Sequence record: NC_001609.1
Source: Enterobacteria phage P4
DNA length: 11,624 nt
Strand: one strand, 5' to 3'
This document shows positions 3,927 to 10,317 of the stretch, piece after piece. A program made the position numbers and the translations under genes. The notes under the pieces were generated by a model. That model saw only the letters and a program-made list of their open reading frames with translations, did not search any database and had not been told where the DNA came from. Within the stretch, counting starts at the first letter, position 1. The number at the start of each line of letters is the position of its first letter.

Positions 3927-3965
3927 TTCTAATCGAAGTTAAGATGCCCCCAATTATGCCCCCAA
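3916..3965. repeat. Cluster of three (A/G)TGCCCCC(A) repeats, candidate integrase arm-type binding sites
   Basis: GTGCCCCCAA inverted at 3916-3925 (overlapping the int start codon), ATGCCCCCAA at 3944-3953 and 3956-3965. Two more copies lie at 4154-4173 on the other side of the att core. Confidence 0.5.
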
Positions 3966-4077
3966 TGATATCCGGATTTCAACGGACAACCTCGGAAGAC
4001 GCAGGACGAAAAAATCGCTGCAAGCATTGATTTTAAAGGGATATTTGGACTTTCTCGGATGGTCTTGGAAGTAAGAA

Positions 4078-4101
4078 TGGTGCCGAAGGCCGGACTCAAA
4101 C
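4078..4101 (-). other. attP core region with homology to the 3' end of a tRNA (leuX-type tRNA-Leu)
   Basis: TGGTGCCGAAGGCCGGACTCAAAC is the reverse complement of a tRNA T-arm/acceptor 3' end (...GTTTGAGTCCGGCCTTCGGCACCA). Only the 3' segment is present, as expected for a phage att core that regenerates the tRNA 3' end on integration. Confidence 0.55.
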
Positions 4102-4153
4102 ATCAAAATAAGTTAATGATAAAAAACAAATAATAAAACACAACAATGAAATA

Positions 4154-4173
4154 TGCCCCCTTTTGTGCCCCCA
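4154..4173. repeat. Two further (A/G)TGCCCCC repeats on the far side of the att core
   Basis: ATGCCCCC at 4154-4161 and GTGCCCCCA at 4166-4173, the same motif as the 3916-3965 cluster, bracketing the tRNA-like core. Confidence 0.5.
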
Positions 4174-4290
4174 CTGTTTTTCTGACCAATCTATTTTCAG
4201 CCCATCAATAAATCGGAAAGTTAAATCATTTTTAATCAGTAAGTTTGGATCCGTAGCTCGGATCCAAACCAGTGCATCTTTTATCCACAT

Positions 4291-4590
4291 AAAAAATTTT
4301 TTTTCGAAAGAACTGTTCACACTGTTCACCTTTCTGTTTTCTCCTTTTATTTCAGAGTGATAGGTGGTGAATAATGGGTGAAGGGTGAACATTCGATTCT
4401 TCACCTCCGGCATTCTGCCGATGTGACTCATACCGGTGATTAATCCTCCGCACTGAAATCACTCAGGAAGAAAAAAGTTTTTTTTGATTTGATTGTTCAC
4501 ACTGTTCACCTTTCGTTTTTCTCTTTTAATTTCAGTGTGATAACGGGTGAATATACGGTGAAGGGTGAACAGTGGATTGTTCACCTTCGG
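4291..4590. repeat. crr (cis replication region): two 120-bp direct repeats carrying alpha-binding type I iterons
   Basis: Copies at 4291-4410 and 4471-4590 are near-identical, with an exact 180-bp period (ACTGTTCACC at 4321 and 4501) and a 60-bp unrelated spacer. Each copy holds several TGTTCACC / GGTGAAYA octamers in both orientations. Confidence 0.75.
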
Positions 4591-8689: not shown

Positions 8690-8729
8690 AGGCGAAAAAC
8701 TATATCCGCAAATGCCGGAAAAAGGCAAG
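8690..8729 (-). promoter_or_regulatory. Candidate early leftward promoter PLE (sigma70-like)
   Basis: On the minus strand, TTGCCT (-35, plus 8729-8724), about 18-nt spacer, TATAGT (-10, plus 8704-8699); predicted start near 8690. Lies just downstream of the vis stop. Confidence 0.3.
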
Positions 8730-8763
8730 CCAGAAAAAGGGAGTTTTTGCAGAGCGGGCATCA

Positions 8764-9030
8764 TCATGCGTCGTACCCCCGTTTGCGTCCGGCAATGCGT
8801 CCGGCCATCCATGCGGTGACTTCAGAGTGCAGCCAGGCCACATTTTTACCGCCAAGACTCACCTGCGGCGGAAATTCCCCCTTACGGATGAGTTCGTAGA
8901 TGGTCGAGCGTGACAGGCCGCACAGGTGCATCACTTCCGGCACACGTAAAAAACGCTCCTGCGTGATGTCCGGCAGCGGCATCAGTGGCGTCACTGGGGC
9001 GGGAGACGGGGAAGAAAAAACAGCTTGCAT
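8764..9030 (-). CDS. vis: Vis, AlpA/Xis-like helix-turn-helix regulator and excision factor (orf88)
   Basis: 88-aa ORF with ATG at 9030 and GAGG SD 7 nt upstream. Contains the AlpA-family HTH ...[30 protein letters not shown].... First gene downstream of the late leftward promoter. Confidence 0.8.
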
Positions 9031-9132
9031 CGGGCTACCTCGTTAATGTCCATACAGCACCGGATAAGTCCGTCCGGCTTCGGGTAGCGCTTTATTTTGT
9101 GAATATTTTCAGCAGACGCAACAGGGGGGATT

Positions 9133-9150
9133 TGTTCAGGCTGTCTTACA
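9133..9150 (-). promoter_or_regulatory. TGT-N12-ACA dyad: Delta/Ogr-type activator site of the late leftward promoter PLL
   Basis: TGTTCAGGCTGTCTTACA at 9133-9150, the P2/P4 late-promoter activator dyad, about 100 bp upstream of the vis start in the leftward direction. Confidence 0.5.
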
Positions 9151-9179
9151 ATGGCTGTGTGTTTTTTGTTCATCTCCAC

Positions 9180-9209
9180 TTAAAGTCATTTAAAGCCACT
9201 TAAAGCAAT
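9180..9209. promoter_or_regulatory. Three tandem cox-box-like repeats (TTAAAGNNAN) at exact 10-bp spacing
   Basis: TTAAAGTCAT / TTAAAGCCAC / TTAAAGCAAT at 9180-9189, 9190-9199 and 9200-9209, upstream of the PLL activator dyad. Resembles binding sites for helper P2 Cox (and possibly P4 Vis). Confidence 0.45.
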
Positions 9210-9308
9210 TTGTAATTTTTATAGTGAAATACAAATCGTTTCTTCTTATTCATTCCCGGCGAATTAATAAAAACAAACAGTAGTAAACAGCACAAAAAGC
9301 CCATCAAC

Positions 9309-9414
9309 GGGTGAACAGTGGTGAACAGACGGTGAACAGTCATTACTGCGATTGTTCACCCTTTAACTTACTGTATTACTTATCTTTTTTATTAAGGTGA
9401 ACAGAGGTGAACAG
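9309..9414. other. ori: origin of replication with six alpha-binding type I iterons and an AT-rich spacer
   Basis: GGTGAACA at 9310-9317, 9320-9327, 9331-9338, 9396-9403 and 9406-9413, plus inverted TGTTCACC at 9354-9361. AT-rich stretch 9362-9395. Same octamer as in crr. Confidence 0.65.
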
Positions 9415-9492
9415 TAAAATATAAAAAAACAAACAGTAAGCCGGTTTTTCCTGCGACCTTTTCCTGGCTTGCCGGTCTGAGGATGAGTCTCC

Positions 9493-9510
9493 TGTGTCAG
9501 GGCTGGCACA
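9493..9510 (+). promoter_or_regulatory. TGT-N12-ACA dyad: Delta/Ogr-type activator site of the late rightward promoter Psid
   Basis: TGTGTCAGGGCTGGCACA at 9493-9510, about 75-90 bp upstream of the sid ATG, consistent with an activator site centred near -55. Confidence 0.55.
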
Positions 9511-9582
9511 TCTGCAATGCGTCGTGTTGTTGTCCGGTGTACGTCACAATTTTCTTAACCTGAAGTGACGAGGAGCCGGAAA

Positions 9583-10317
9583 ATGTCTGACCACACTATC
9601 CCTGAATATCTGCAACCCGCACTGGCACAACTGGAAAAGGCCAGAGCCGCCCATCTTGAGAACGCCCGCCTGATGGATGAGACCGTCACGGCCATTGAAC
9701 GGGCAGAGCAGGAAAAAAATGCGCTGGCGCAGGCCGACGGAAACGACGCTGACGACTGGCGCACGGCCTTTCGTGCAGCCGGTGGTGTCCTGAGCGACGA
9801 GCTGAAACAGCGCCACATTGAGCGCGTGGCACGCCGGGAGCTGGTACAGGAATATGACAATCTGGCCGTGGTGCTGAATTTCGAACGTGAACGCCTGAAA
9901 GGGGCGTGTGACAGCACGGCCACCGCCTACCGGAAGGCACATCATCACCTTCTGAGTCTGTATGCAGAGCATGAGCTGGAACACGCCCTGAATGAAACCT
10001 GTGAGGCGCTTGTCCGGGCAATGCATCTGAGCATTCTGGTACAGGAAAATCCGCTCGCCAACACCACCGGCCATCAGGGCTACGTCGCACCGGAAAAGGC
10101 TGTCATGCAGCAGGTGAAATCATCGCTGGAACAGAAAATTAAACAGATGCAAATCAGCCTCACCGGCGAGCCGGTTCTCCGGCTGACCGGACTGTCAGCG
10201 GCAACACTCCCGCACATGGATTATGAGGTGGCAGGCACACCGGCACAGCGCAAGGTGTGGCAGGACAAAATAGACCAGCAGGGAGCAGAGCTTAAGGCCA
10301 GAGGGCTGCTGTCATGA
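9583..10317 (+). CDS. sid: Sid, external scaffold / capsid size determination protein
   Basis: ORF track starts at GTG 9565, but the ATG at 9583 is preceded by AGGAG (9571-9575) and gives 244 aa (MSDHTIPEYL...), matching recalled Sid length. Helical, Ala/Glu/Leu-rich sequence. Confidence 0.85.
   Translation: MSDHTIPEYLQPALAQLEKARAAHLENARLMDETVTAIERAEQEKNALAQADGNDADDWRTAFRAAGGVLSDELKQRHIERVARRELVQEYDNLAVVLNFERERLKGACDSTATAYRKAHHHLLSLYAEHELEHALNETCEALVRAMHLSILVQENPLANTTGHQGYVAPEKAVMQQVKSSLEQKIKQMQISLTGEPVLRLTGLSAATLPHMDYEVAGTPAQRKVWQDKIDQQGAELKARGLLS

Follow-up and report, generated by a model that had tools for sequence, protein, structure and literature searches.

Organization of the region between vis and crr

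The DNA analysed here (the window, 11,624 bp) is the complete genome of the satellite phage P4. Positions 8700-9700 are 99.9% identical to the GenBank record X02534 ("Bacteriophage P4 essential region"), whose annotation places orf88 (vis) on the minus strand, to the left of the intergenic segment considered in this work (Table 1). In the same, older record an "imp. direct repeat 3/3''" is annotated at what corresponds to window positions 9176-9188 and 9196-9207. The interval between vis and sid also contains the crr iterons (GGTGAACAG repeats, from 9308), at about 100 bp from the array of repeats described below; the ori/crr iterons correspond to the words TGTTCACC / GGTGAACAG and are located at 9308-9420 and 4312-4329. 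A terminator-like hairpin found by a scan at 9331-9360 consists of two inverted crr iterons, GGTGAACAG...TGTTCACC.

Table 1. Features of the vis-crr region, in window coordinates
Feature	Position	Strand	Remarks
vis (orf88), first gene transcribed from PLL	8764-9030	-	X02534 annotation
PLL leader (5' UTR of vis)	9031-9086	-	1/56 columns polymorphic in 85 related loci
Putative -10 region of PLL, CACAAAAT	9094-9101	-	read from the sequence and the position of the dyad
TGT-N12-ACA dyad, Delta/Ogr activator site of PLL	9133-9150	-	centre taken as -55
Variable cassette, ~50 bp	~9169-9218		three discrete alleles in P4-like elements, E. coli
Candidate weak box, TTCATCTCC	9169-9177	+	6/8 to consensus; 11 bp before box 1
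cox-box 1, TTAAAGTCA	9180-9188	+	8/8 to consensus
cox-box 2, TTAAAGCCA	9190-9198	+	8/8 to consensus
cox-box 3, TTAAAGCAA	9200-9208	+	7/8 to consensus
Candidate weak box, TTATAGTGA	9219-9227	+	6/8 to consensus; 19 bp after box 3

The late promoters of P2 and P4 carry an activator site for proteins of the Ogr/Delta family, with the form TGT-N12-ACA and centred at -55. One such dyad precedes vis, and from this established knowledge of late promoters we take it to lie at -55 of PLL; among relatives its TGT and ACA are invariant and the N12 is variable. This position of the dyad would set the start of the leftward PLL transcript at about 9087, and the three boxes would then span approximately -93 to -122. 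A generic sigma-70 scan gave no match at PLL, as expected for an activator-dependent promoter. At the relative place of the -10-like element of PLL, Psid has CACAAT. The claim of the earlier note that the repeats are located upstream of PLL is thus borne out by the position of the dyad, and it agrees with the published description (PMC3936717). The boxes lie to the right of PLL and read 5'-TTAAAG-3' rightward, that is, pointing away from the promoter.

Other elements of these promoters deserve mention. Conservation of the PLL leader greatly exceeds that of the promoter or the flanks, and a protein site or an RNA element is possible there. Upstream of sid there are two further TGT-N12-ACA dyads (9493-9510 and 9531-9548), 38 bp apart, which fit Psid activator sites at about -55 and -18, with transcription beginning near 9557 and the sid ATG 26 bp further on.

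The segment 9180-9209 reads TTAAAGTCAT TTAAAGCCAC TTAAAGCAAT, which confirms the three gapless tandem decamers with exact 10-bp phasing that had been described from the letters alone. Tandem Repeats Finder reported a period of 10 and 3.1 copies at 9176-9206, and the window of 11.6 kb contains the exact word TTAAAGNCA at just two places, 9180 and 9190 (expected, 0.42). Each box was scored by its matches at the 8 positions of the published P2 cox-box consensus, TTAAA(G/C)NC(A/C) (PMC3936717, PMC5009727). The start-to-start distances are exactly 10 and 10 bp, the published criterion being 10-11 bp, with one protomer per helical turn (PMC3936717). The window holds 34 sites with at least 7/8 matches on both strands, and nowhere but in the array are two of them spaced by 10-11 bp. 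Beside the three strong boxes, two candidates score 6/8, while at least 6 cox-boxes per site and a protection of at least 70 nt are given in the literature (PMC3936717). The candidate to the left of box 1 may be one of the additional boxes that this number implies; the one to the right sits in DNA conserved across all the alleles described below.

It could be argued that the array is a tandem repeat without function, originated by chance or by slippage, since short repeats do arise in AT-rich intergenic DNA and there are just three copies here. However, of 3000 first-order Markov simulations of the window only 1 gave a same-strand triple of boxes (at least 7/8, spacing of 10-11 bp), and of 20000 simulations with the local AT-rich composition none did, results that argue against a chance array. 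Furthermore, the 30-bp array hardly varies among 36 related elements with this allele (pi 0.0019), whereas its immediate flanks do (pi 0.03-0.09), and the array fits both an independently defined consensus (PMC3936717) and an operator of P2. Conservation and statistics together effectively refute a functionless repeat, to which we assign a negligible probability.

The repeats as binding sites for P2 Cox

Cox of the helper phage P2 is a winged-helix protein which acts as excision directionality factor and as repressor of the P2 promoter Pc. According to Berntsson et al. 2014 (PMC3936717), P4 PLL is activated by Cox, which binds a region located upstream of this promoter. The site was located by Saha et al. 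1989, as cited in PMC3936717, and passages of PMC5009727 and PMC6092414 also credit that work with Cox binding and PLL activation. In addition, the P2 GenBank record states that Cox "activates P11 promoter of satellite phage P4", where evidently PLL is meant. The boxes at PLL have been described as facing away from the promoter (PMC3936717), with which the sequence agrees exactly. The proposal that the repeats are sites for P2 Cox is therefore upheld by consensus, spacing and orientation as well as by the published activation of PLL, and the same published work matches the idea of a point of helper-satellite cross-talk. We infer that the published Cox footprint overlaps 9180-9209, since the array is the only consensus cluster in the genome and has the appropriate location and orientation. 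Very probably, then, this segment is a docking site through which Cox activates PLL and derepresses P4 on the arrival of P2. Given the published binding and activation, the Cox site of P4 is already known and is not new; for P4 itself nothing changes, the site being the textbook point of derepression by helper P2.

The closest counterpart of the array is the Pe-Pc switch of P2, with which it has in common the word TTAAA(G/C)NC(A/C), the 10-bp phasing and the orientation relative to a leftward promoter. Aligned without gaps to the three Pc-proximal P2 boxes, the P4 array presents 26/34 identities (CACTTAAAGTCATTTAAAGCCACTTAAAGCAATT in P4, CACTAAAAGGCATTATAAGACATTAAACGCAATT in P2), and this alignment is the top match of the array in a 3.5-kb P2 locus (score 18, the next one 12). 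The three Pc-proximal boxes of P2 score 7, 6 and 8 of 8, compared with 8, 8 and 7 in P4, so that the P4 copy appears as a cleaner version of the helper operator. The two systems differ in the position of the boxes: at Pc they overlap the -10 and the spacer and repress, according to the annotation, whereas in P4 they lie about 90-120 bp upstream of PLL and activate. A second Cox site of P2, at attP (about 74 bp, annotated in the P2 record), involves the same protein and the same word family, but its boxes are weaker and in both orientations (PMC3936717), and its role is in recombination and not in transcription.

In the mechanism that we propose, Cox protomers would bind the phased TTAAAG words head to tail, one per helical turn. 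As the boxes point away from PLL, the oligomer would extend rightward across AT-rich DNA towards crr. The DNA would be bent or wrapped by the oligomer and the promoter left free, PLL would be activated, the operon from vis to alpha would be transcribed despite P4 immunity, and the P4 prophage would become derepressed once P2 arrives. Both the identity of the nucleating boxes and the stimulation of RNA polymerase from far upstream are what we infer within this scheme.

Arrays with a similar architecture are known in other phages. The Apl operators of phage 186, at pR-pL and attP, consist of 5-7 direct repeats with a 6-bp core and a spacing of 10-11 bp, and Apl is a small HTH directionality factor that binds cooperatively and needs at least 3 adjacent sites (PMC7498355). 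This organization is shared with the P4 array, but the word (TGGCAA) is different and Apl is a protein unrelated to Cox. Likewise, the X1-X1.5-X2 micro-filament of lambda Xis is formed by a winged-helix protein that binds phased direct repeats cooperatively, head to tail, and bends the DNA (PMC7498355). The lambda site differs in that it serves only recombination, has another word and does not sense the protein of another element.

A cassette with three alleles in P4-like elements

Relatives of the vis-crr intergenic region were found in 1063 of 5426 complete E. coli genomes (~20%). The alignment of eight of them showed a block of about 50 bp replaced wholesale between almost invariant flanks. 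A set of 85 loci was then compared: the window, 8 E. coli genomes, 1 GTDB contig and 75 IMG/VR contigs (L002-L009, L019 and L025-L099). Only three alleles were present among them: A, the P4 array (36/85 loci); B, with GCGCCAGATAGCTTTAAAACGCTCTGGAAGGAGCTGGAAAAAAT (30/85); and C, with CGGACTGGAAGGGTCTCAAAGGGTTCTGAAGGACCTGGAATTT in four 10-bp-phased units (19/85). Between alleles 23 of the 30 array columns differ, while within alleles pi over these columns is 0.002-0.012, compared with 0.03-0.09 in the flanks. The surroundings of the cassette are otherwise 97-100% identical in the 85 loci, and nearly every locus has 86 bp separating the anchors CTTACAATG and TATAGTGAAAT (two loci have 85 bp). We also considered epsilon as a second, co-varying determinant of specificity, and discarded it, since its identity among all alleles is 97-100%. 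Alleles B and C were likewise compared with the attP Vis region of P4, as possible copies of it, and no similarity was observed.

The allele comparison bears on the suggestion, made in the earlier note, that the repeats could also serve the P4 regulator Vis, an AlpA/Xis-type protein that represses PLL and stimulates Psid; the array would in that case be a Vis operator. Vis is also of the directionality-factor type, proteins that bind phased direct repeats (PMC7498355), and its binding to the PLL and Psid regions has been reported (Polo 1996, as cited in a passage of PMC2603039). However, an identical Vis (WP_001149160.1) adjoins allele A in one E. coli genome (L007) and the unrelated allele B in five others (L002-L004, L006 and L009). 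More generally, Vis keeps an identity of 97-100% over the three alleles (76 loci), although the arrays differ at 23/30 columns. None of the three alleles resembles the P4 attP region, a reported target of Vis (PMC2603039), and neither the Psid nor the attP region has TTAAAGNCA. These regions contain no cox-box of at least 7/8, and the best in-window matches of array A lie elsewhere. Since the same Vis protein is found beside completely different repeats, the suggestion is not supported, and we regard a Vis operator at the array as very improbable. A better candidate for Vis than the array is the word GACTYATCC, which belongs to conserved DNA.

As a separate observation, the window contains just two copies of GACTYATCC, one at 9062-9070 (minus strand), in the invariant PLL leader, and one at 9481-9489 (minus strand), just upstream of the -55 dyad of Psid. 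Recognized post hoc, this word is a candidate Vis box.

Another explanation would be that a host architectural protein binds the repeats, or that these form part of the neighbouring replication region crr; the array does lie in an AT-rich intergenic stretch, with the crr iterons about 100 bp away. Nevertheless, the crr/ori iteron word is a different one and is conserved in all alleles, while the array is swapped, and unrelated alleles within one host species would be unexpected for a host-factor site. The fit of the array to the Cox consensus and to the P2 operator speaks against both variants, which we consider very improbable.

We also weighed whether the left edge of the block could serve the start of a leftward ORF of 62 aa (8991-9179), the repeats being the upstream region of this ORF. 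In 82 of the 85 related loci this frame has stayed open, and most loci keep its ATG (9173-9171). Against its being a gene, most of the changes in it are nonsynonymous, two loci have lost the start and one has acquired a stop, and a scan detected no promoter-like site upstream of it. Moreover, alleles B and C lack the GGAG that in P4 stands only one base from this ATG. The ORF stays open because it spans the PLL promoter, which is itself conserved; it is probably not a gene, and a role of the repeats as its upstream region is extremely improbable.

Similarity between satellite arrays and helper operators

The comparison also covered more distant elements. Satellites whose Vis is 70-79% identical carry further arrays with 10-11-bp phasing at the place equivalent to window 9170-9230, upstream of vis. 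In L022, L102/L103 and L104 there are three to five TGGCAA-like cores (at most 1 mismatch), 10-11 bp apart and weaker in L022; the words of L022 and L102-L104 resemble the Apl operators of phage 186. The array of L020, TAATTAGCGC CAGAAGCCTT TAGAAGCAAT, has a TTAGAAGCA-type word like the switch of 720R8, and that of L101 is similar to allele B. L023 carries TTGCA words and L024 GTGCA words, and the arrays of these two had no counterpart among the ten helper loci described next.

The helper set, of 48 kb, covered ten P2-like phages through their int-C-cox (or int-cI-apl) regions, and the best local alignment on either strand was taken for each array. Array A has its best match in the P2 Pe-Pc switch, and array B in the switch of Salmonella phage SW3 (19/22), with another match in E. 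coli phage ESSI2 (26/38, ungapped). The best match of array C, with the exact 12-mer GGACTGGAAGGG, is located in WPhi between the att core and the Int arm sites, a position analogous to that of the annotated Cox site at attP of P2. The array of L020 matched the 720R8 switch best (23/29), and those of L022, L102 and L104 the annotated Apl sites of 186 (22/27, ungapped, for L102). The top match thus fell inside a Cox or Apl operator region for 7/7 arrays tested, which represent five word types. Shuffled arrays fell in operator regions in 26/315 cases under mononucleotide shuffling and in 41/315 under a permutation that keeps the 10-bp repetition (8-13%). Judged only by score, most shuffles stay below A, B, C, L020 and L102, whose values are reached by 0-3 of 45; this is not the case for L022 and L104 (45 shuffles each).

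An extra set of 80 loci of the WPhi/SW3 family, with 41 distinct operator regions, was also searched, and the best partner for both B and C among them was an operator of the L294 type, CTAGAACGTTTTCAAACGGTTTAGAAAGGGCTGGA (25/35, ungapped, for B). The switches of three E. coli prophages of the WPhi family (L194-L196) were no closer to B or C than those of SW3 or ESSI2. A profile search for Cox loci retrieved P2 and 720R8 types only, and a guessed exact pattern of a helper operator for allele B, GGAAGGAGCTGGATC, gave only random matches in viral contigs. The Cox proteins of the WPhi group are 85-90% alike and, as judged by eye, differ mainly in a TAVxxMxKxNK segment, which is probably the recognition helix.

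Taken as pairs, these matches suggest that array A corresponds to a P2-type Cox and arrays B and C to Cox proteins of the WPhi/SW3/ESSI2 group. They suggest in the same way that the array of L020 corresponds to a 720R8-type Cox, and those of L022 and L102-L104 to a 186-type Apl. On the basis of the allele structure, the conservation within alleles and the similarity to operators, the block at about 9169-9218 could be a swappable module, in which the arrays copy the operators of different P2-like helpers and decide which helper wakes the satellite; we give this proposal about even chances. The PLL promoter, the leader, vis, epsilon and crr may thus stay near-identical while only the array of about 50 bp is exchanged. 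No description of such an exchangeable module of operator mimics was found in the searchable literature.

The simplest ecological prediction would be that each allele resides together with its matching helper. We counted co-residence over the 5426 E. coli genomes by inclusion-exclusion, with clonal structure uncontrolled. Allele A was present in 439 genomes, allele C in 238, the P2-type switch in 405 and the WPhi-type operator in 260. Allele A was found with the P2 type in 54 genomes (expected 32.8) and with the WPhi type in 70 (expected 21.0); for allele C the corresponding values were 35 (expected 17.8) and 18 (expected 11.4). Satellite cassettes and P2-like prophages therefore co-reside above chance in this collection, with odds ratios of 1.7-4.8. 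Allele-matched co-residence was not found among these genomes, which counts against the simple prediction: the strongest pairing is that of allele A, of the P2-Cox type, with WPhi-type prophages, a heteroimmune and not a matched combination. It should be noted that co-residence is not decisive, because Cox comes from the infecting or induced helper and a resident prophage confers immunity to its own type. The same holds because clonal structure was uncontrolled and WPhi proper is one of more than 10 operator types in its group.

If the swappable module is real, a cassette of 50 bp would determine which helpers can induce the members of a very common satellite family. It has been reported that the Cox protein of WPhi does not activate P4 (Frykholm et al. 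2016, PMC5009727), a behavior that the module would explain. It would also offer a simple sequence rule to predict satellite-helper pairs, and a testable system for the reading of DNA by small winged-helix directionality factors. In Staphylococcus pathogenicity islands (SaPIs), the helper is sensed by protein-protein contact with the Stl repressor. The logic of SaPI/PICI induction is the same, an early protein of the helper waking the satellite (PMC6092414), but what P4 uses to sense its helper is a DNA site, a copy of the operator of that helper.

Two minor observations concern attachment regions. In WPhi (L011, about 900-935) a phased array, ATAAGGGACT GGAAGGGCTA CAAAGTTCTG, lies between the att core and the Int arm sites, and it is this array that carries the 12-mer GGACTGGAAGGG in common with satellite allele C. 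In the P4 window, GCCCCC-containing direct repeats are present at 3944-3966 and 4152-4177 (ATGCCCCCAATT twice, and ATGCCCCC...GTGCCCCC); they flank a tRNA-like att core near 4079-4100 and resemble arm-type sites of an integrase.
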